This document shows positions 3,311 through 30,301 of a stretch of 64,000 nt of DNA, in pieces (positions within the stretch are counted from its first letter, which is position 1; each line of letters opens with the position of its first letter). The translations under genes were made by a program, and so were the position numbers. The notes below the pieces were generated by a model, which did not search any database, had not been told where the DNA came from, and saw only the letters and a program-made list of their open reading frames with translations. The stretch covers positions 328,549 through 392,548 of the forward strand of contig LCPF01000001.1 in NCBI GenBank assembly GCA_001003475.1. The letters are read 5' to 3'. Source of the DNA: Candidatus Jorgensenbacteria bacterium GW2011_GWA1_48_11. GTDB taxonomy: Bacteria; Patescibacteriota; Minisyncoccia; UBA6257; GWB1-50-10.

Positions 3311-3311
3311 G

Positions 3312-3384
3312 TCCGCCCACTAGGAATCGAACCTAGAACCTTCTCCTTAAAAGGGAGCTGCTCTGCCAATTGAGCTATGGGCGG
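3312..3384 (-). tRNA. tRNA-Lys (anticodon UUU)
   Basis: The reverse complement folds as a cloverleaf: acceptor CCGCCCA/TGGGCGG, D-arm GCTCAATTGGCAGAGC, anticodon loop CTTTTAA and T-loop TTCGATT. CCA is not encoded. Confidence 0.8.
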
Positions 3385-3523
3385 GTTTAACTTTTAGAGT
3401 TTAACTTATCATTTATTTTAATTCAAGGTTGATTTTTAGAACAGTGTTCAGTTGACCGTTTAAGAATTAGAAATTAAAATGATTCTGCAATTTGATATTC
3501 GAAAAAGCATAAGAAGGTTCAGC

Positions 3524-3784
3524 TCCGCGGTAGCTCAGCGGTAGAGCGGCTCCCTGTCGAGATAATGGCAGCCCCAGGCAGTAATGTTTGGAGGAAAAAC
3601 CGGGCTAATTCGGGGAACTCTTGTATAAAGACAATCCCGAGCTAAATTCGCCCCAGGGCGATAAACGTGTAGAGACTATATACCCGGGCCCCTTAGAAAA
3701 AGGGACATGAGATAGTCCAGCCCCCTTGGCGACAAGGGAAAAACTGTAAGGAGATGGTCGTAGGTTCGAATCCTACCCGCGGAG
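3524..3784 (+). tRNA. tRNA-Asn (inferred anticodon GUU) interrupted by a 189-nt group I intron in the anticodon loop
   Basis: The 5' exon (3524-3557) reads TCCGCGG-TA-GCTCAGCGGTAGAGC-G-GCTCC-CTGT. The 3' exon (3747-3784) reads TAA-GGAGA-TGGTC-GTAGG-TTCGAAT-CCTAC-CCGCGGA-G. The spliced anticodon loop is CUGUUAA. The exon boundary is inferred from a U at the 5' exon end and a G at the intron end. Confidence 0.65.
3558..3746 (+). ncRNA. Group I intron (subgroup IC3-like, tRNA-type) inside the tRNA anticodon loop
   Basis: Core blocks resemble the small bacterial pre-tRNA group I introns (Azoarcus tRNA-Ile-like): GCTAAATTCG, GTGTAGAGACTA and a 3'-terminal G. Length is 189 nt and no ORF is present. 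Confidence 0.6.
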
Positions 3785-3837
3785 CTGAGCCTTTTTGTAT
3801 GGACGTTGAAAGCGGAATAACCAAGTTGCCGGTCAAA

Positions 3838-13290: not shown

Positions 13291-14214
13291 ATGGCTCTGT
13301 CGGCTAGTATTGCCAAGGAGAGTAGGGGCTATCTTCTCATCCCTACGAAGCGCATCCGCCGCTATCCGGGCCAGCCGAGGCTCTACATCGAGCCGCTCGC
13401 TCTCATGGGTCTTGAGGCGAGCATCAGACACATCGGTCAGCGACGGGCGATAACCGTAAAAGCGGTTACCGGTGATCCGGACCACGACTACGAGCTGATC
13501 GACGGCGAACGGCGCTGGCTTTGCTGCAAGCGCATCGGCACCGCGAAGATGAAGGCGGTCGTCGAGGAGCCGGAGAACGACGACGAGCAGTTCATCAGCT
13601 CGGTCATTCTGAACATTCCTTCGCAGGAGCACACGCCGCTCGAGATCGCCCACGCGATCGAGCGGATCCGGAAGAGCGAGAAGTTGAAGAGGATGCCGCG
13701 GACCGAGCAGATGAAGTACATCGGCGCGATGTTCGGCCACGACGAGATCTGGGCTTACCGGTATCTTCGTCTGCTCGAGCTCGATCATCGGGTGCACGTT
13801 CTGATGGACGGCAAGCGGTCCGAGGACGAGCGGTTGAATGTTTCGATCGCGTATTTCCTGCTGGGCTACTCGCCTGAGATCCAGGTGAAGAGTGCCTTGC
13901 GGGCGGTGACGATGGGCTGGAGCCTGCGGCAAGTCGAGGTCTACGCCGCGGGCCTTGCCGCCGAATCCGGGGAGATCAGGTCTGGCGTCCGGCCGAAAAG
14001 GCCCTCCGACAACTACCGGAATCTCCTGAGTTTCTTGAGGAGGCTCCACGAGGGGGCCGAGCTCGTTTTGAGCATGCCGAACCGGTCGTTCGAAGAGATG
14101 TTCCTGGCGCGCGACCCCAAGGATCGGGAGAAGACGATCGGGGAAGTGAGGGCCTGCCGGGCCGATCTCGCGGAGATCGAGCAGGTTCTCGAGCGCCTGA
14201 AGCAGAATGCGTGA
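13291..14214 (+). CDS. ParB-like nuclease (ParB/Srx) domain protein
   Basis: ParB N-terminal motif ELIDGERRWLCCKRIG. A strong SD (AAGGGGGA) lies upstream. The antisense ORF 13249-14049 is rejected. Confidence 0.7.
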   Translation: MALSASIAKESRGYLLIPTKRIRRYPGQPRLYIEPLALMGLEASIRHIGQRRAITVKAVTGDPDHDYELIDGERRWLCCKRIGTAKMKAVVEEPENDDEQFISSVILNIPSQEHTPLEIAHAIERIRKSEKLKRMPRTEQMKYIGAMFGHDEIWAYRYLRLLELDHRVHVLMDGKRSEDERLNVSIAYFLLGYSPEIQVKSALRAVTMGWSLRQVEVYAAGLAAESGEIRSGVRPKRPSDNYRNLLSFLRRLHEGAELVLSMPNRSFEEMFLARDPKDREKTIGEVRACRADLAEIEQVLERLKQNA

Positions 14215-15512: not shown

Positions 15513-15518
15513 ATAAAA

Positions 15519-15552
15519 AATCTCCTAAAAAAGGAGATTTCTTTTGTTTTTC
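15519..15552 (+). terminator. Rho-independent terminator after dinB
   Basis: AAATCTCCTAAAAAAGGAGATTT hairpin followed by a T-run. Confidence 0.6.
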
Positions 15553-18338: not shown

Positions 18339-19232
18339 ATGAAAAACAGAATTCAAAAAATTCAAAAGTATTTAGAAGGAAAGAATATTAAGAACAAGCT
18401 TATTTCTAAAAATAAGTCAGATCATCTTCTTATTAATGGTGATTGTGATGAGGTAATGATGTTATTGCCCGAAAAGAGTGTCGATCTAATCATTACTGAT
18501 CCGCCGTATAATCAATCTCTAGATTACGGATTACGTTTTAATGATAATAAAAGCTGGGCGGAATATTATGCATGGTTGGAGCAAAAGCTTTCACAGATTC
18601 CAAGATTACTAAGTGATAAAGGAAGTTTCTATTTAATAAGTTATCCAGAAATTAACGCGCGAATATTACCATTTCTTGAGGATAGACTAAAGCTAAATTT
18701 CAGACGTTGGATTACTTGGCATTATCCAACAAATATTGGCCATTCATATAAAAATTTTACAAGAAGCCAACGCTCGATACTCTTTTTTACTAAGAGGGGA
18801 AAAGGATACGTTTTTAACCAAAAAGAAATCATACAACCATATAAGAATCCTACTGCTCCCGTAATTAAAGAACGCTACCGTCTGGGTTATAAAGGAAGAG
18901 CCGCTTACGATGCACTAGGTTTAGAGGATTTGATAGAGATAGATTTGCTTAAGAATAACTCTCCAGAAAGATTTCGAAATATTGATTCTAAATTTGTTTC
19001 TTTAGATAACAATAAGGAAAAGCTTAAAAAAATTGATCACCCATGCCAATTGCCGCTTAGTTTATTGGAGCTATTTATAAAAGTTAGTAGTAAATCAAAT
19101 TCTGTGATATTTGATCCTTTTGCTGGCACGTTCACCACGTCAGCCGCCGCAGCGAATTTGGGCAGAAATTCTATAGGAGTGGATTTAAATCCTAAATTTA
19201 TTAAATTTGGTGTTAAGAGATTAAAAAAATAA
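18339..19232 (+). CDS. DNA methyltransferase, beta class (N4-C or N6-A; DPPY before FxGxG)
   Basis: Motif IV (DPPYN) precedes motif I (FDPFAGTFTTSAAA). Confidence 0.8.
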   Translation: MKNRIQKIQKYLEGKNIKNKLISKNKSDHLLINGDCDEVMMLLPEKSVDLIITDPPYNQSLDYGLRFNDNKSWAEYYAWLEQKLSQIPRLLSDKGSFYLISYPEINARILPFLEDRLKLNFRRWITWHYPTNIGHSYKNFTRSQRSILFFTKRGKGYVFNQKEIIQPYKNPTAPVIKERYRLGYKGRAAYDALGLEDLIEIDLLKNNSPERFRNIDSKFVSLDNNKEKLKKIDHPCQLPLSLLELFIKVSSKSNSVIFDPFAGTFTTSAAAANLGRNSIGVDLNPKFIKFGVKRLKK

Positions 19233-19234
19233 AA

Positions 19235-20983
19235 ATGACTGGAGAAGAAGAATTAAAAAGTCTATTAGGATCTCTTGGTTTTAATGTTTTTGTATTTGAT
19301 GAGGGAGATGATAAAAGTGGTATTACCATACAACGCACGAAAGATCAGGAGCCTTGTGAAATAGATGCTATAGCTATACACGAAAACGTTATTATCTTAA
19401 TTAACGCTTATAGAGGTTTACGCAGTAGAAAGGCGTTTGATAAAATACCTGATTTTTTTCGACAACTAAGATATTTAGACACCCCTGATAAACTAAATCT
19501 AGTTGTTAGTAATCAGAAATTACCAGCTGGTAATAAAAATTTAAAATCCATAGGTCTTATCAAAGACCTTATACAAAAAAGTTCTTATGATTGGTTACTT
19601 ATAAAATTAGCATTTTCTCCAAACGTCCATATTCCCATCGGGAAAATTGAACTTAATAATCAGGAGATAATTTTTGATAAAAAACATAACGATTATTTTG
19701 GATATGGTATAGAAAATATAGGAGGAGAATACATGAGACAAGAATTTCTTTATTTTCTTAAGATTAAAATGCGGGAATTCAAACGTTTAAAGGGAAGTAG
19801 AGTTGGTGATGAGCCGGAGTTAACTGCAGATTTTCAAAGTATAGAAACTAAATTGAATGATAATCAGACAATGTATTCAACTAGTGTTTCTGTAAGTGAT
19901 ATTATTCCTTATATTCAGGTGTTGCGAGTTGCCGATGAATATAATGAACAGGCATTTCAACGAATGATAAATGGGGAAATTATAAAAAGAATTTCCAATG
20001 AGTATCTTAATAAAAATAAATCTTTCCCCAATAATATAATTCTTGCCTTTAATCCAGATATATATAATCATGGACGCGCTATTAATTTCGCAGGAGCTAA
20101 AAGAATAAAGTTTTATAAGGAGTTTGGTTCGCTAATCGTCATAGATGGACAACATAGATTACTTGCTCACCTTTTAGAAAAAAATAGAGATTATCTAAAA
20201 TCAGTTTTGGTAAATGTAATTTTATTTGAAACTAAAGATAGAGCTAAAGCATTTGATCAAATGGCTGAGTTGTTTTATCTCATTAATACTAAACAAAAGA
20301 AACTTACATCTCTGGTGTCGTTAAGAATACGTTCCAAAATTATTCCTTCCGATATGGAGTCAATATGGTATAGGGTTTTTGAAAAATTAAATAACATGGA
20401 TCAAAGAGACAATTATCTTTTTGAAAAAATTTCATTTGATGAAAAAGAAATACGTAAAGAGAAAAACGGGATTAATATAAGTAGTATAATATCTTATTCT
20501 GGCCTTAAAAGGATTTCTAATGGAGTAAAGAAAGGGAAAAAGAATTTAATAGGCTTAAAAGATATTTATTTACAGCAGGTCGTATTTAAGAACGAAGAGC
20601 AATTTTACGAAAATTTTGTTAGAAAATATTTCAGTATTATTGGAGAAATAATCGATAGAAATACAAAAATGGCGGCTCGTGATTTCGGTGGTTTATTAAG
20701 AATAGCAATACATTTCTTAAATGATTCTAAAACAAAAGATGTATTTAAAAACTTTGCTTTGGAAAATAATGCATTGCCTACAAAAATCGTTGAAGATATA
20801 AAAAGCTATTTTATTAGGATACCTTTTAATAAACTTGATCAATTAGAATATGGCGCTAATGCGTGGGCAATAATGGAAGGTTTTTTCCTTGGGAATATTC
20901 GAAAACATCATAGAGGATTTGGTATTTCTTCACTGTTGAGTAAAAAAGGACAGGCGGCAATGAAGAAAGGCAAAAAGTTTTAA
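19235..20983 (+). CDS. DGQHR-domain protein (DndB/DpdB-like ParB-fold) with an N-terminal nuclease-like region
   Basis: An exact DGQHR motif (SLIVIDGQHRLLAHL) sits at about residue 300. The start is only 3 nt downstream of the MTase stop. 582 aa. Confidence 0.65.
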   Translation: MTGEEELKSLLGSLGFNVFVFDEGDDKSGITIQRTKDQEPCEIDAIAIHENVIILINAYRGLRSRKAFDKIPDFFRQLRYLDTPDKLNLVVSNQKLPAGNKNLKSIGLIKDLIQKSSYDWLLIKLAFSPNVHIPIGKIELNNQEIIFDKKHNDYFGYGIENIGGEYMRQEFLYFLKIKMREFKRLKGSRVGDEPELTADFQSIETKLNDNQTMYSTSVSVSDIIPYIQVLRVADEYNEQAFQRMINGEIIKRISNEYLNKNKSFPNNIILAFNPDIYNHGRAINFAGAKRIKFYKEFGSLIVIDGQHRLLAHLLEKNRDYLKSVLVNVILFETKDRAKAFDQMAELFYLINTKQKKLTSLVSLRIRSKIIPSDMESIWYRVFEKLNNMDQRDNYLFEKISFDEKEIRKEKNGINISSIISYSGLKRISNGVKKGKKNLIGLKDIYLQQVVFKNEEQFYENFVRKYFSIIGEIIDRNTKMAARDFGGLLRIAIHFLNDSKTKDVFKNFALENNALPTKIVEDIKSYFIRIPFNKLDQLEYGANAWAIMEGFFLGNIRKHHRGFGISSLLSKKGQAAMKKGKKF

Positions 20984-21014: not shown

Positions 21015-21055
21015 GAAGCCTGCGCAAAGTGCGCGGGCTTCATTATTTTATATTT
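21015..21055 (+). terminator. Hairpin terminator at the end of the RM operon
   Basis: A GAAGCCTGCGC/GCGCGGGCTTC stem followed by an A/T-rich run. Confidence 0.4.
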
Positions 21056-21075: not shown

Positions 21076-21501
21076 TTATTTTGAATAAGGAATTATATTT
21101 TCTTCCAAGAACATTCTTATTTTTGAAAGATAAAGATCTTTTTCTTTTGGTTTGCTTTCCGCGATTTCAACTGCGAATCGGTAGAGCTCGTTGTTCGAAA
21201 CCTTAAGCCACTTCCGGTTTTTGAAGAGAAAAACCAAAAGCGTCATTACCGCTAACCGCTTATTGCCGTTCTCGAACGGATGATTTTTTATCATCAAATA
21301 AAAAAGGATAGCTGCCTTCCCGGTTAATTTCCGATAAAGCGGCTTGCCGTACGTTTGGAACGGCGTTTGAATGTAGCTTTCAAGAACATTCGGGAACCTC
21401 GTGCCAAAGTCCGGTATTGGCTCATCGAAGGTCATCAATTCCTTGGCTAGCCTGAAAGCAGTATATTCAACCTCTTTTAAGTTGATTATTTTTATCTTCA
21501 T
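21076..21501 (-). CDS. doc: Doc (death-on-curing) family toxin, Fic fold
   Basis: Fic/Doc motif HPFENGNKR. Overlaps the upstream antitoxin gene by 4 nt (ATGA). Confidence 0.85.
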   Translation of the reverse strand: MKIKIINLKEVEYTAFRLAKELMTFDEPIPDFGTRFPNVLESYIQTPFQTYGKPLYRKLTGKAAILFYLMIKNHPFENGNKRLAVMTLLVFLFKNRKWLKVSNNELYRFAVEIAESKPKEKDLYLSKIRMFLEENIIPYSK

Positions 21502-21749
21502 TCCTGGCCGAGTTTTTTGAAAGCCGTTCCATATTCGGTCACGGCTCGCCGCACGGCTTTGTCTATTTCGCTTTTATTTTCTTCGCCGATCGATTTACCG
21601 AGGAGTTTCAAGACTTCTTCTTTGGGGATGACATAGTTCCGACCGATCTTGCTGGCCTTAATCTGGCCATTCACTATTTTTTTATGGATGGCTATTCGGC
21701 TGACTTTAAGCGCTTTCGCGACTTCGGCGGTGGAAAGGAAATCCGTCAT
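21498..21749 (-). CDS. HTH (MerR/excisionase-like) DNA-binding antitoxin
   Basis: N-terminal HTH (TAEVAKALKVSRIAIHKKI). The 83-aa gene is co-oriented and translationally coupled with doc. Confidence 0.7.
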   Translation of the reverse strand: MTDFLSTAEVAKALKVSRIAIHKKIVNGQIKASKIGRNYVIPKEEVLKLLGKSIGEENKSEIDKAVRRAVTEYGTAFKKLGQE

Positions 21750-21750
21750 A

Positions 21751-21780
21751 TTTATAGGTTAACATATGTTAACCTATAAA
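21751..21780. promoter_or_regulatory. 30-bp perfect palindrome TTTATAGGTTAACATATGTTAACCTATAAA abutting the antitoxin start: candidate TA autoregulatory operator
   Basis: Perfect dyad symmetry located 1 nt upstream of the antitoxin ATG. Confidence 0.6.
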
Positions 21781-21917
21781 TTCAAGACCGCAAGTAGATT
21801 TATGCCCTTAGAACCTGGACGACTGGCGTCGGCTTTGCCGGTTTTTTTTGGAGATTTACTTGACGAGAAGTGTAAAGAGTGCCATCCTTTTTAACAGTAC
21901 GAAAGGTGGTGATACCG

Positions 21918-25726: not shown

Positions 25727-26605
25727 ATGAAATGTCTTCTGTGTAAAAACACGGAATTTGACCAAATTGCTCATTCACTCCGAGGAGGAGAGTTAATAAA
25801 TGTAAAAAAGTGTCTAAAATGCGGACACGTGCAGTTATATCCATTGCCAACCGAAAAAGAAATACAGGAGCGATACGAGACCGCGGCCGTATCAATACCG
25901 CAATCGGAAAAGAAAAGATTGAGCGATAAAGAGGTATTTTCTCTTCGAGATACTATTTATAATGCCGATCTTGTTTCTTCTCTCATCCCCAAAGGAGCAA
26001 CTGTTCTTGATTATGGATGCGGCTACGGCTTCTTTCTTAAAGAAATGAAAAAAAGGAAATATAATATAAGCGGAGTGGATATTTCTACAATCCGTACTGC
26101 CGTAGCAAAAAAAAATGCATCGAAGATAGAAATTAAACAAAATCTTACGGATCTTTCGCAAAAATCTTTTGACTGTATTACTGCTTTTCATGTTCTTGAA
26201 CATGTTCGTGATCCAATTGGTTTACTTATAACGCTGAAATCATATTTAAAACCGGGAGGCAGATTGATCATTGAGGTGCCAAACCTCGACGACCATTTGA
26301 TATCTCTCGTCCCGGAATATAAAGATTTTTATTGGAAAATAGAACATTTGTCGTACTTTAACGCGAAAACGCTAGCTTATTGTGTTCGTAAGGCCGGTCT
26401 TAAATTGCAAAAGACTTTTTACTACCAACGTTGGGATATTTTCAATTTGATGAATTGGGTATTACGGCGAGCGCCTCAACCGCCAGCCGAAGTCGTTTAT
26501 TTTGCCGAACGGCCGAAATTAATCAGCTGGTTGCAAAATCATTACAAGGAATATTTATCCAAGAATAAAACGGCGGACGCGGTTTTCATGGTGATAAAAT
26601 CGTGA
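25727..26605 (+). CDS. Class I SAM-dependent methyltransferase with N-terminal zinc ribbon
   Basis: CLLCKN...CLKCGH zinc ribbon followed by methyltransferase motif I (VLDYGCGYGFF). The start is 1 nt after the upstream stop. Confidence 0.75.
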   Translation: MKCLLCKNTEFDQIAHSLRGGELINVKKCLKCGHVQLYPLPTEKEIQERYETAAVSIPQSEKKRLSDKEVFSLRDTIYNADLVSSLIPKGATVLDYGCGYGFFLKEMKKRKYNISGVDISTIRTAVAKKNASKIEIKQNLTDLSQKSFDCITAFHVLEHVRDPIGLLITLKSYLKPGGRLIIEVPNLDDHLISLVPEYKDFYWKIEHLSYFNAKTLAYCVRKAGLKLQKTFYYQRWDIFNLMNWVLRRAPQPPAEVVYFAERPKLISWLQNHYKEYLSKNKTADAVFMVIKS

Positions 26606-27213
26606 CTAACGTAAAAAAAGACTTTTATGTAGTTGGGCTATACGGAATAAATTCTGCCGGTAAGACCGCTATTTCTCGGTTGCTTATGAAAGAAATCCCC
26701 ATATGCGAAATACAATCTACCGACAATTTAATGAAATTGTTTAAGTCTTATCACAAGGATCCAAAATACGTCGGCCTTTCGAGTCGTACGGCGTGGAAGC
26801 TTATCGGCGAAGAGAACGAAACTAACATTATTGAAGGGTTTAAAATATACAGGAGTATTGTTTCGTCCGATATAGATGTTTTAATAAACCGGGTGCCGAC
26901 AGAAAATTTTACAATGATATTTGAGGGAATCCATTTTTCGCCAAAGAATAGAGAAGCGGATAAAGCCGTAAAGATAATTCCCATATTACTTACCCTTCAG
27001 GACAAAGAGGCGCATAAGAGAAGAATTATTGAAAAATGCAATGGAAGAAACGAACTAGAACAGAGGTTGCTTGACGGCATGAAAACAGCAAGATTAATTC
27101 AGGAATTCCTTATAAGAGAAGCAAAAGAAAACGGGACGATTGTTGTGGATACAAGTTTTGATATCGTAAAACAAACTCTTAATAAAATTCTTAAAATTAT
27201 CAGTGATTACTGA
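26602..27213 (+). CDS. P-loop NTPase / predicted kinase
   Basis: Walker A motif GLYGINSAGKTAIS. Confidence 0.55.
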   Translation: MTNVKKDFYVVGLYGINSAGKTAISRLLMKEIPICEIQSTDNLMKLFKSYHKDPKYVGLSSRTAWKLIGEENETNIIEGFKIYRSIVSSDIDVLINRVPTENFTMIFEGIHFSPKNREADKAVKIIPILLTLQDKEAHKRRIIEKCNGRNELEQRLLDGMKTARLIQEFLIREAKENGTIVVDTSFDIVKQTLNKILKIISDY

Positions 27214-28162
27214 TCATACGCATATACTGACAAAGTGGGGAGATATAGTAACCGCAAGGGGTTTTAACGACGGTGATTTAATTTATGTAGTGCCTCTTTA
27301 TTTCCTTTCAGATAAAGGTAGCCGCACTTATAGCGGGGAAAAATACGAAAAATACGTCGATGAATTTGCAGAACGTTATCGGCATTTTCACCCGGAATTG
27401 GTTCGGTCTACGCCTTACGGCCAGCGAGTAGCGATACGGGAGGACCAGATTACGCGCGCCTTCGATCCTTTTGCAAACCCTCGGCTTATTTATGATTCTT
27501 TTGACAAAAAAATTTATCGGCGGGTTGTCGATATTCTTACTAAATTTGTCCCCAGAGAGAGCATTGGATTTATCGGGTCGAGCCTGGTCGGTTTCCAGAC
27601 GGCTGGTTCCGATTTGGATATAGTAATTCGCGGTCTAGAGAATTACCGGACCTTACGCGGCCAGTTCAAGGATTTTCTGAATGCTTTAGGGGCATGCGCC
27701 ACGATAACCAGGGAACAGTTTTATAAATCTGTTGTAAAATACGAACGGTTATTCAATGGAGTCAATAACGATTTCGCGACAATGATTAAAAACCGTTGGC
27801 CCACAATTCATATGCCAGGTGAATTGTTTTGTAAAATCCGTTTCACGTTGAATCCGGCCAATGACGTTATTTTCTCCGCACCTTCCAACCTTTCTTTAAG
27901 GGAAGGATCGGTCAATGGGAAAGTTATAGAGGACGAGGGCGTCGCTTTCATGCCCAGACATTTTCGATTACGTCTGAACGAAGGTGCAGAATACGAGACC
28001 ATTACTTACCATTGGGATTATTCTTACTGCGTAATGGTAGGCGACGAAGTGACGGTTAGAGGAGCAATTGATGAGAGCGAGAAAATTATAGTCGTTAGTG
28101 ATCGGAAGAATCACGGCATAACTTTTAAAAAACAGAATAATATTGCCTGTGCTATTGTATAA
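27203..28162 (+). CDS. Nucleotidyltransferase (Pol-beta superfamily) domain protein
   Basis: GS...D.D motif (IGSSLVGFQTAGSDLDIVI). Confidence 0.55.
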   Translation: MITDHTHILTKWGDIVTARGFNDGDLIYVVPLYFLSDKGSRTYSGEKYEKYVDEFAERYRHFHPELVRSTPYGQRVAIREDQITRAFDPFANPRLIYDSFDKKIYRRVVDILTKFVPRESIGFIGSSLVGFQTAGSDLDIVIRGLENYRTLRGQFKDFLNALGACATITREQFYKSVVKYERLFNGVNNDFATMIKNRWPTIHMPGELFCKIRFTLNPANDVIFSAPSNLSLREGSVNGKVIEDEGVAFMPRHFRLRLNEGAEYETITYHWDYSYCVMVGDEVTVRGAIDESEKIIVVSDRKNHGITFKKQNNIACAIV

Positions 28163-28166
28163 ATTT

Positions 28167-29138
28167 ATGGAAACACAAACCCTTTATAGAACTTTCGATA
28201 CGAGATTTGAAAAGGAAGTACTGCCTTACATTGAGAAAAAGCTTCCACGGGATTATTTTTCAGAACCGATTTATTACTATATTGATAATTTTCAAATGCG
28301 TCGTTTCCGCGCAGTATTGCCTCTTATTATCGCCGAACATACCGGCGTCAATTATGAAGACGCTTTGGCGCTTGGAGCGGCATCCGAGCTCATCTTTACC
28401 ATCGCCTTAGTTCAGGACGACTTTATAGACGGCGATAAGATGAGGGGTGATATTTTAGCAGCTCACGAGAAATACGGCGCAGGGCGAGTCTTAGCATCGG
28501 CTGATTATGCGTATGGTGCGGTCTACGATATGATTTCGGATTTATCTCGTGGCGATGTGCCTGCGGCCGCTTTTAAAACAATCCTGGAAGGATTTCAGAA
28601 ATCCCATAGAGATCTTTATCAGAGTTTTATTATGGAATTAGGCTTTCAATTTCCCACCATTGAGATTACCAAAGAATATGTGAGGAAGGTGCATTTAGCG
28701 AAAACGGCACAGGGAATTAACGCTCTTTATTGTATCGGGGTACTAGCAGAACAAAAATCGGCCGGAAAGTTATCTCGAATATTTAAACGCTACGCGGAAC
28801 TGTTGGGAAGCGCCGGACAGATTAAAAATGATGTTTATGATTTCACGCGATATGCCGAATCAAGGGGATTATCCGATTTTCGCAATGGATATATCACATA
28901 CCCTCTCGCATATCTTGCAGAAGTAGTCGATCGAGTTCATTTAAGCGATATTCTTAAGAAGAAAGACGTGGATGGTTTTATGGATTTAATGAAGGAATAT
29001 AATGTAGTTGAAATATTGCGTAAAGAGATAAATGATCTTGCCGATCAAGCGATTTCAATTATCAAAGAAATTCCTTTGCCGATGCCGCTTAAGGAGATCT
29101 TAGAGTGTTGGGCGGAAGGCAATAGATTTACTCGTTAA
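28167..29138 (+). CDS. Isoprenoid (polyprenyl/terpene) synthase-fold protein
   Basis: First Asp-rich motif DDFIDGDKMRG (DDxxD...RRG-like) and a second motif NDVYD. Confidence 0.55.
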   Translation: METQTLYRTFDTRFEKEVLPYIEKKLPRDYFSEPIYYYIDNFQMRRFRAVLPLIIAEHTGVNYEDALALGAASELIFTIALVQDDFIDGDKMRGDILAAHEKYGAGRVLASADYAYGAVYDMISDLSRGDVPAAAFKTILEGFQKSHRDLYQSFIMELGFQFPTIEITKEYVRKVHLAKTAQGINALYCIGVLAEQKSAGKLSRIFKRYAELLGSAGQIKNDVYDFTRYAESRGLSDFRNGYITYPLAYLAEVVDRVHLSDILKKKDVDGFMDLMKEYNVVEILRKEINDLADQAISIIKEIPLPMPLKEILECWAEGNRFTR

Positions 29139-30301
29139 TTTTCTTGATTAAAATAATGTTCATTCCTTAAAAGATTTTTATTAAAAATATCTAAGACTTG
29201 TCTTGCTCGGTTACGCCATTCATAACTTTTAACGTCAATTATTGCTTGTTTCGCTAGAGAACTAGCCAATTTTTTATCTTGAATAAGTTTTGCAATACCA
29301 TCAGCCAGTATTTTTGGATTATTCGGTTCAACCAAGAGAGCATTAGCATCATTTAATACTTCACGTATTGATGGCAAATTGCTAGCTATTATTGGTGTGT
29401 TGCTGGCCATATACTCAAAAAGTTTTAACGGAGAAGTCAGTTTTTCCGAGATTTGATTCCCCTTTTTATTAGGTAGTATCAGAATATCGGCTGCTTTAAG
29501 ATAGAGAGGGATTGAGGCGTGTGGCTGACGACCAACACATAAGACGTTTTCGGGCAAGAATTCTCCGGTAGATTTTTCCGCGTCCGACGAATTTCCACCC
29601 ACGACTACGAAAATAAAATCATTGGTGAAAAATTTCGCGGCTTTGATAAAAACATCTTCTCCTTTCCAATCCTTGTAAAATCCTACACTACCGCTATATA
29701 GGATAATTTTCTTGTTTAAGGGCAGATTTGTGATTTTTCTGGCTTCCAAATGATTTGTATTTAGGTCAAATTTTTTCAAATCGACCCCATCTGGAAGAAG
29801 AGAGATTTTTTGCGGTGAGATATAATACTGATTCTTAATTATTTCAACCATCGCTTTTGTAATGGTTACGATAAGATCGACTCGAGGAAAAACATATCGA
29901 TCAAGCGGAAAAGGTACGTGAGCTTCCATAACAATTCTAATGTTGCTGGAAAAAAGTTTTTTCCAAATCAAGGCGTAAGTCGCAAGACGCGTGTCTTTAA
30001 AATACAGAATGGTTTGGGAAACGGTTGATCGATTTGAGATCAATAAAAAAGGCATCCATAAAAAATAATAGTAGATGGAGAAAAAGCGTTTAAAGAAAGG
30101 GGGGTTTACGATATGGTGCGGTATTTTTGAAAGATTTTCATTTTCTTCTCCAGAGCAGACAAGAATAAATCCGTTACCGAGTAGTTGGCTGAAGGCTTGA
30201 GCCATCGAGAGTACTTGGATTTGGTTGGCAAAGCACGTCCTAAAGTTGAGAGGTGTAATATAAATAAGTTTTTTATTCTCCAGCATATCAATTATTTCCA
30301 T
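29135..30301 (-). CDS. Glycosyltransferase family 1 (GT-B, GT4-like)
   Basis: C-terminal EX7E-type motif region (EYMASNTPIIASNLPSIREVL). 388 aa. Confidence 0.8.
   Translation of the reverse strand: MEIIDMLENKKLIYITPLNFRTCFANQIQVLSMAQAFSQLLGNGFILVCSGEENENLSKIPHHIVNPPFFKRFFSIYYYFLWMPFLLISNRSTVSQTILYFKDTRLATYALIWKKLFSSNIRIVMEAHVPFPLDRYVFPRVDLIVTITKAMVEIIKNQYYISPQKISLLPDGVDLKKFDLNTNHLEARKITNLPLNKKIILYSGSVGFYKDWKGEDVFIKAAKFFTNDFIFVVVGGNSSDAEKSTGEFLPENVLCVGRQPHASIPLYLKAADILILPNKKGNQISEKLTSPLKLFEYMASNTPIIASNLPSIREVLNDANALLVEPNNPKILADGIAKLIQDKKLASSLAKQAIIDVKSYEWRNRARQVLDIFNKNLLRNEHYFNQEN

Follow-up and report, generated by a model that had tools for sequence, protein, structure and literature searches.

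A conserved methyltransferase-DGQHR gene pair in Candidatus Jorgensenbacteria, a probable restriction-modification variant with a putative ParB-fold switch

We analysed 64,000 nucleotides of the genome of Candidatus Jorgensenbacteria bacterium GW2011_GWA1_48_11 (contig LCPF01000001.1, positions 328,549 to 392,548 of the forward strand; hereafter the window, whose own numbering is used throughout) and, within them, two adjacent genes that encode a DNA methyltransferase (MTase) and a 582-residue protein with a DGQHR domain. A first-pass annotation, made from the letters alone, had singled out this pair as a candidate for an unconventional restriction or modification-dependent module.

The gene pair and its low-GC island

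The pair lies in an island of low G+C content (GC; window 15.45-21.1 kb, 27-37% against a host background of about 52%) that holds three co-oriented genes on the forward strand: those of a Type IIG restriction-modification (R-M) enzyme, of a beta-class MTase and of the DGQHR protein (Table 1). Housekeeping genes, for phosphoenolpyruvate synthase, DinB and TspO, flank the island; att-like direct repeats or an integrase bounding it were looked for and not found. Terminator-like hairpins bracket the three genes, one before the IIG gene (15518-15540) and the other after the DGQHR gene, and none was detected between any of them.

Table 1. Features of the island and domains of the 582-residue protein, in window coordinates
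Feature	Position	Strand	Basis
Type IIG R-M fusion, 895 residues	15622..18309	+	Eco57I, N6_Mtase, TaqI_C and HSDR_N domains
Beta-class (DPPY) DNA MTase, 297 residues	18339..19232	+	PF01555 N6_N4_Mtase, E 2.3e-43
N-terminal domain of the 582-residue protein, residues 1-195, modelled PD-(D/E)xK fold	19235..19819	+	AlphaFold2 model, Foldseek, residue conservation
DGQHR domain (ParB/Srx-CTPase fold, predicted NTP-binding switch), residues ~200-482	19832..20680	+	TIGR03187, motifs, Foldseek
C-terminal helical region, residues 483-582, and stop codon	20681..20983	+	AlphaFold2 helices 481-581
Intrinsic-terminator-like hairpin with T-tract; ends the transcription unit downstream of the DGQHR gene	21015..21051	+	12-bp stem, 8 GC pairs

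Both reading frames of the pair, a DPPY MTase and a 582-residue DGQHR protein separated by 2 nt, stand exactly where the first-pass annotation had put them: the MTase stop codon (TAA, 19230-19232) ends 2 nt before the ATG of the second gene at 19235. The MTase has its DPPY motif at residues 54-57 (18498-18509) and its motif I, FAGTF, at residue 261; its PF01555 domain, with DPPY and FxGxG motifs, has the complete catalytic set expected of the MTase in a Type II R-M system, and PADLOC scores the protein as MTase_II (1.5e-45, against 7.6e-14 for Type III). Its closest solved structures are the N6-methyladenine (m6A) enzymes M.MboIIA and M.RsrI, and it is probably of the N6-adenine type. It has 435 homologs at E<=1e-40 and belongs to a dedicated subfamily, paired almost always with a DGQHR protein of the putative nuclease type described below. 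Members of this subfamily are conserved over their whole length, including the central region where the target recognition domains (TRDs) of beta-class enzymes lie, which suggests a single, discoverable methylation motif.

The gene that precedes the pair was correctly described in the first pass as that of a Type IIG enzyme (PADLOC REase_MTase_IIG, 2.6e-102). Its product carries an NPPW motif and a D...EAK nuclease motif; it is of similarly low GC and ends 29 nt before the MTase gene. It lies outside the conserved pair, as a context gene or possibly an operon partner. Profile and PADLOC scans found neither dnd nor dpd genes within ~10 kb of the pair, and no dnd genes were found among the neighbours in the window or at related loci; the earlier statement that dndACDE and dpd genes are absent nearby therefore holds, and the pair belongs to neither a Dnd nor a Dpd system.

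A modelled restriction-endonuclease fold joined to a DGQHR domain

The 582-residue open reading frame (19235-20983, +) is not a chance one, since it runs for 1749 nt in DNA of 30% GC and has full-length homologs at ~50% identity. The public call for this protein (P0001, on an ENA metagenome contig, locus L031) is of 416 residues and starts at an internal Met, so that existing annotation misses most of the nuclease-like N-terminal domain (19235-19732). The public call for the MTase is likewise short, at 257 residues.

AlphaFold2 models the full-length protein with a mean local confidence (pLDDT) of 85.8 and a predicted template-modelling score (pTM) of 0.80, and residues 1-195 with 91.5 and 0.88. 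When the N-terminal model was compared with the PDB by Foldseek, only PD-(D/E)xK nucleases were returned: R2 RLE was the best match (E 2e-3), Can2 was found with probability 0.96, and the others included Card1, Bax1, AF1548, the small subunit of R.BspD6I, Hjc, NucS, McrC and Cas4. The statistics of these matches are modest, with TM-scores of ~0.3 and no match at E<=1e-3. The full-length model gave as top match the ParB N-terminal domain 5k5a, followed by a block of PD-(D/E)xK nucleases. The N-terminal model contains the alpha-beta-beta-beta-alpha-beta core of that superfamily; NERD, which we take to belong to it, is the sole Pfam family to recur for the domain, with weak matches, and sequence and profile searches of PDB sequences with the full protein and with the N-terminal domain gave only noise. 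Judged from its model, then, the domain has a restriction-endonuclease-like fold, albeit with weak fold-search statistics. The extra N-terminal region seen in the first pass exists, but it spans ~195 residues and not ~290, since the DGQHR domain starts near residue 200.

Candidate active-site residues are D22, E42-x-D44 (19358-19366), K124, D148-K149 (19676-19681), Y154 and E170. Invariant across the family are Y154, E/D170 and E42-x-D44, with which the second core strand begins. Of the three motifs singled out in the first pass, the FD of FDEGDD (F21-D22) and EID (E42-I-D44) are conserved, together with N51; E50 of the third, ENVIIL, is not.

The signature of DGQHR domains consists of a QR pair, the DGQHR pentapeptide and FxxxN (PMC4619093). 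All three are present in the window protein, as Q242-R243 (19958-19963), residues 304-308 (20144-20158) and F347..N351 (20273-20287), and all are invariant in an alignment of 14 sequences, R308 of the pentapeptide included. The TIGR03187 DGQHR model matches residues 210-482 (E 7.5e-16) with 58.7 bits, marginally below its cut-off of 58.85, and the Pfam DndB model PF14072 gives E 4e-4 (19.9, cut-off 29.1) with the window protein; 13 of the 14 family members match PF14072, at best with E 3e-8. By its motifs, therefore, the 582-residue protein is a DGQHR-domain protein, with a borderline profile score. Of the related proteins that have been characterised, DpdB is a DNA-stimulated ATPase whose DGQQR motif corresponds to the GxxRxxA CTP-binding motif of ParB (PMC10164549), and a DndB-like protein binds ATP and GTP in a manner dependent on its P-motif arginine (PMC12704722); in SspE and GmrSD the same ParB-fold module is an NTPase coupled to an HNH nuclease. 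By analogy, the DGQHR domain studied here would bind nucleoside triphosphate (NTP), and probably hydrolyse it.

The C-terminal region has no Pfam or PDB match and contains the invariant residues R489, H493, F494, W544 and E548. Its helices are possibly a DNA-binding or dimerisation module, by analogy with the C-terminal domain of DpdB. We considered and rejected a HEPN or DUF1524 identity for them: Pfam offers no support, and Rx4-6H is not matched by the spacing of the invariant R489-x3-H493.

Linkage, distribution and divergence of the pair

Loci for the analysis of linkage came from protein look-ups and from genome and metagenome scans, and were scored with hidden Markov models (HMMs) of the family; they comprise 24 distinct members with the N-terminal domain and enough upstream sequence. 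A PF01555 MTase lies within ~0.6 kb in 23 of them. It is directly upstream on the same strand, its stop codon usually overlapping the next start codon, in 16, and 611 nt upstream in one; in the remaining six a larger PF01555 MTase is adjacent and divergently transcribed. Conversely, at four loci anchored on the MTase, and chosen solely for length of contig and range of identity, a DGQHR protein of 513-582 residues starts at the MTase stop in 4/4. The linkage persists at 22-27% identity between DGQHR proteins and is seen in DPANN archaea and bacteria of the candidate phyla radiation (CPR). The MTase and DGQHR genes form a genuine module, rare and conserved, with linkage that is near-obligate and reciprocal, and the co-occurrence across genomes that the first-pass annotation had proposed to look for is thus borne out. 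That annotation would have given up its proposal for a non-catalytic N-terminal fold in a family without association to MTases; neither is what we see, because the fold as modelled is restriction-endonuclease-like, within its weak statistics, and the linkage to an MTase conserved.

In the defence islands where the pair is found, its neighbours are Type I, Type IIG and GmrSD systems, and it repeatedly sits directly behind or inside R-M operons based on gamma-class N6_Mtase enzymes. At L075 (1868-3976) a IIG-like gene whose product is 39% identical over 700 residues to the window IIG enzyme lies 25 nt upstream of the pair; at L006 (535-4784) and L028 the pair follows an HSDR_N/N6_Mtase/Eco57I protein and an S subunit; and at L076 (70-4008, 7524-8111) hsdM and hsdS enclose the pair, which overlaps the stop codon of hsdM.

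The family is small. When 5.8 billion proteins were searched by word index, 13 relatives of the 582-residue protein were recovered, about ten of them full-length at ~50% identity, and a profile search raised the number to 18. An exhaustive HMM search of 1.84 billion representatives with the N-terminal domain alone returned 51 clusters (at 50% identity), 33 of them at E<=1e-10; nearly all hits are of 550-630 residues with the domain at the N-terminus. The N-terminal domain exists only in this architecture, because every full-length member carries DGQHR at residues ~270-320. One genome per species from 185,579 species yielded no close member, only relatives of ~30% identity in Pacearchaeota, Aenigmatarchaeota and Kaiserbacteria. 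A scan of viral contigs found no relative, and tblastn against annotated phages and plasmids gave only DGQHR-level matches (28-31%, residues 208-400) that do not include the N-terminal domain.

The two proteins of the pair diverge at very different rates: the MTase is the more conserved in 99% of pairwise comparisons, with a median identity of 61% against 31% for its partner. Two metagenome contigs, L006 (encoding P0008) and L028 (P0014), are essentially identical over ~5 kb, with 3 mismatches, and then diverge from about MTase residue 177 onwards, their DGQHR genes being only 28% identical. Nearly identical genomes have therefore exchanged a cassette made up of the 3' half of the MTase gene and the DGQHR gene. 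A gene that turns over rapidly, in cassettes, while the MTase ahead of it is conserved behaves as a restriction or effector gene would be expected to, and not as a housekeeping co-factor.

Elsewhere in the window, a 307-residue protein with a ParB N-terminal domain (PF02195, E 2e-10) is encoded just upstream of dinB (13291-14214, +), in DNA of host GC; in sequence it is unrelated to the DGQHR protein. Beyond the island, on the opposite strand, a Doc/Fic toxin (141 residues) and an HTH_17/excisionase-like antitoxin (83 residues) are encoded with a 4-nt overlap (21076-21781, -), in DNA whose GC of 41-45% is intermediate relative to the R-M core; immediately upstream of this pair lies a perfect 32-nt palindrome (21750-21781), likely an operator. 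A second patch of low GC (0.39-0.40) covers window 26000-30000, and its open reading frames at 26602-28162, which adjoin genes for a polyprenyl synthetase and a glycosyltransferase, have no Pfam match. A group I catalytic intron (3438-3739, +) is matched at gathering level over the full Rfam model with 56.7 bits. It lies apparently inside a split tRNA (+) whose 5' exon, GCTCCGCGGTAGCTCAGCGG..., and 3' exon, ...GGTTCGAATCCTACCCGCGGAGC, are at about 3523-3560 and about 3745-3790; ARAGORN makes no call for the split tRNA, which adjoins a tRNA-Lys(UUU) at 3311-3384 (-).

The pair as a restriction-modification system, and its alternatives

In its gene organisation, a small beta-class MTase gene and then a putative nuclease gene, the pair is classical; what is novel is the architecture of the nuclease subunit, and it is in this respect alone that the first-pass statement that no classical R-M type is matched can be kept. 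With its MTase motifs and its linkage in both directions, the pair qualifies, by sequence, as a Type II-like R-M gene pair in the operational sense. It shares with the MboII and RsrI systems the solo DPPY MTase of small size coupled to a gene for a PD-(D/E)xK-fold protein, an MTase much more conserved than the nuclease, and the form of a mobile low-GC module in a defence island; it differs from them in that the nuclease subunit has a helical C-terminus and a DGQHR domain whose NTP-pocket signature is intact, and in that the canonical ExK is replaced in the window clade. We know of no characterised Type II restriction endonuclease with a DGQHR domain, and searches of the literature found none. 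Type III systems are alike in that a mod-like MTase of the PF01555 family comes first, followed by a subunit that joins an NTPase module to a PD-(D/E)xK nuclease, and in that the MTase, central region included, is conserved while the nuclease subunit is free to diverge. Here, however, the NTP module is of the ParB/DGQHR fold and not of superfamily 2, the nuclease domain is N-terminal and not C-terminal, and the MTase has only ~300 residues; a Type III Res subunit was rejected as an identity for the 582-residue protein, which has no helicase, ResIII or DEAD match.

The Type IV enzymes GmrSD, SspE and BrxU likewise combine a DGQ(H/Q)R ParB-fold NTPase and a nuclease in one polypeptide and occur in defence islands, but their nuclease is a C-terminal HNH domain where here it would be of the N-terminal PD-(D/E)xK fold, and they are solitary and modification-dependent whereas the 582-residue protein is linked to an MTase; it has no PF03235, PF07510 or HNH match that would place it among them. 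With DndB and DpdB it has in common the QR, DGQHR and FxxxN motifs and a gene beside that of a DNA-modification enzyme; those proteins lack the 195-residue domain of restriction-endonuclease fold, and the partner here is a simple methyltransferase. DndB itself was rejected (TIGR04172, 26.5 bits against 450; no dndCDE partner genes), as was DpdB (NF041060, 37 bits against 300, 1.7e-9; PADLOC DpdB, 3.3e-8; no dpdA or dpdC and no neighbour resembling a tRNA-guanine transglycosylase). Also related are uncharacterised Bacteroidota proteins of 770-790 residues (L015-L018, L022, L025, L027), homologous to the family profile with E about 1e-24 to 1e-28, in which a restriction-endonuclease fold is again followed by DGQHR and the D-x13-E-x-K spacing is the same; they differ in their greater size, an additional N-terminal segment (HARE-HTH in P0016), a canonical ECK and the lack of linkage to the PF01555 subfamily. 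In Brumimicrobium (L017, 7455-13720) and Saonia (L018, 3602-9797) such relatives, of ~780 residues, are encoded in clusters that also hold a D12-class MTase, an AAA_21 ATPase and an HNH nuclease, in a gene order that differs between the two; these clusters may be a separate four-gene system.

The pair is most likely a new architectural variant of R-M. More specifically, we give a probability of about 0.6 to its being a self-contained R-M-like defence module that arrived by horizontal transfer as part of the low-GC island, and in which an NTP switch of the ParB fold controls the nuclease that serves as restriction subunit. The MTase, probably by m6A, would mark host DNA, and this methylation by the linked enzyme would be what protects it; the 582-residue protein would be the restriction subunit, its N-terminal PD-(D/E)xK-fold domain cutting DNA. 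The ParB-CTPase-fold DGQHR module would bind and probably hydrolyse NTP, making restriction NTP-dependent, and would switch the protein to dimerisation or clamping, such that two single-site nuclease domains meet only on unmethylated DNA; the C-terminal helical region would contribute DNA contact or dimerisation. Searches of the literature found no description of this specific MTase-linked family. Comparative genomics had, however, pointed out in a general way that COG1479/DUF262/DGQHR cores often come fused to HNH, PD-(D/E)xK or HEPN domains and in linkage with R-M (PMC3632139).

Recognition of the target would lie with the nuclease subunit, as in Type II systems, or be borrowed from the MTase, as in Type III. 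Conservation of the MTase over its TRD region alongside divergent nuclease subunits fits the latter, as does the L006/L028 swap; however, the small size of the MTase and its scoring as Type II speak against it. If the DGQHR switch took the place of the helicase-like motor or switch of Type I/III enzymes and gated a PD-(D/E)xK nuclease with a migrated active site, with specificity coming from a Mod-like MTase, the pair would represent a distinct R-M class, a proposal that is possible and that we hold tentatively; specificity supplied by the MTase would account for the exchange of strongly dissimilar nuclease subunits behind one and the same MTase.

The points that weigh against the R-M reading begin with its main uncertainty, nuclease activity in the window clade. 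Of the nuclease core proposed in the first pass the fold stands, within the weak statistics given above, but the catalytic motif D...(D/E)-x-K lacks its second half, which in the window protein reads N57-A-Y59 (19403-19411). Members of the window clade have N/S/T-x-Y at this position, and it varies widely across the family; the canonical (D/E)xK is kept in P0012, P0025, P0034, P0046, P0064, P0065 and the Bacteroidota relatives, with identical D-x13-E-x-K spacing in P0012 ('EID..IEIK') and the Bacteroidota proteins ('QID..VECK'). Catalysis by the window protein is therefore plausible only if D148-K149, in concert with E42/D44, has taken over. Migration of catalytic residues is well known in the PD-(D/E)xK superfamily. 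Here an acidic residue is found at 57 and/or 148 in 64 of 67 non-redundant members, and D148 is present in 25 of the 28 that lack E/D57, the window protein among them, usually as D148-K149. This complementarity (Fisher p 0.0014, not corrected for phylogeny) makes D148-K149 a possible relocated replacement for ExK. Retention of an acidic residue at 57 or 148, together with the invariance of E42-x-D44, Y154 and E/D170, argues for a maintained active site. The evolutionary record is not uniform either: MTase and DGQHR distances correlate weakly (r 0.23-0.36), and between L008 and L009 the order of conservation is reversed, the DGQHR proteins being 61% identical and the MTases only 29%. Finally, one member of the 24 (P0009, L003/L004) has no adjacent MTase, the nearest noted being a 457-residue PF01555 MTase 3.8 kb away; such an orphan is unexpected for a toxic restriction enzyme. 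Small unknown genes lie upstream of it, and the conserved residues of P0009 equal those of the window protein.

Several of these points would be accommodated if the DGQHR protein were a non-nucleolytic partner on the modification side, which loads, stimulates or limits the MTase and whose N-terminal domain binds DNA and has lost catalysis. The characterised DGQHR proteins are of this kind and are not nucleases, DpdB being an ATPase needed by DpdA and DndB an ATP-modulated repressor of its modification operon; phage ParB-CTPase folds are frequently fused to N6_N4 MTases, a recurrent modification-side partnership (PMC12704722); and both the loss of ExK in the window clade, with its high variability elsewhere, and the orphan gene would be in keeping with it. 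Yet small beta-class MTases of the M.MboIIA and M.RsrI type work alone, several lineages retain a fully canonical D...ExK, and the near-universal acidic 57/148 and the invariant E42-x-D44, Y154 and E/D170 point to an active site that is being kept. The partner diverges at twice the rate of the MTase and is exchanged in cassettes, behaviour typical of effectors in a conflict and not of co-factors with a housekeeping role, and the pair sits in defence islands; we consider a modification-side role rather unlikely. Another way of viewing the locus is as one system made up of the IIG enzyme, the beta-MTase and the DGQHR protein, the pair being an accessory of gamma-class N6_Mtase (Type I/IIG) enzymes. 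The want of internal terminators, the bracketing ones and the common 27-37% GC agree with this, as do the homologous IIG-like gene at L075, the placing of the L006/L028 and L076 pairs within Type I/IIG operons, and an earlier observation of COG1479/DGQHR genes inside Type I loci (PMC3632139). Most loci, however, have no Type I/IIG neighbour (L001, L005, L030, L008-L010, L077, L078); the systems upstream are of several kinds (Type I, IIG, GmrSD-like), which is what clustering in defence islands would give; and the window IIG enzyme, equipped with a nuclease motif, an NPPW MTase motif and a TRD of its own, should be self-sufficient. We judge the three-gene system improbable, and improbable to a like degree the accessory role that it would assign to the pair, for example second-strand methylation combined with a nuclease that serves as back-up or against evasion.

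The architecture of GmrSD, SspE and BrxU, a ParB-fold NTPase with a nuclease, also raises the idea of the DGQHR protein as a Type IV or abortive-infection nuclease that stands alone, akin to GmrSD and SspE, with the MTase as an unrelated neighbour, for instance a companion of the IIG enzyme. Some Type IIG systems, such as Eco57I, need a second MTase. As a main explanation we reject the MTase as IIG companion, because the pair recurs without any IIG gene: its near-obligate, reciprocal linkage holds at loci that have none. The overlapping stop and start codons of the two genes indicate co-translation, the recombination cassette spans both, and the protein has no DUF262/GmrSD_N or DUF1524/HNH signature. 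A Type IV enzyme would, moreover, attack self DNA if it recognised the mark of its linked MTase, and a stand-alone nuclease is in our estimation very improbable. The same consideration bears on the modification-dependent module offered as an option in the first pass, which finds no support, since cutting at the mark of its own linked MTase would be self-destructive.

If the preferred R-M reading is true, this small pair (2.6 kb) adds an uncharacterised restriction-subunit architecture, in which a restriction-endonuclease fold is joined to a ParB-type NTP switch, and which PADLOC models miss apart from a faint match to DpdB. It would give DGQHR domains, so far known only from the modification or regulatory proteins DndB and DpdB, a role on the restriction side, and would extend the use of ParB-CTPase folds as nucleotide switches well beyond chromosome segregation. 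Those relatives that have an organism label belong to DPANN archaea and CPR bacteria, groups whose defence systems are still little explored.

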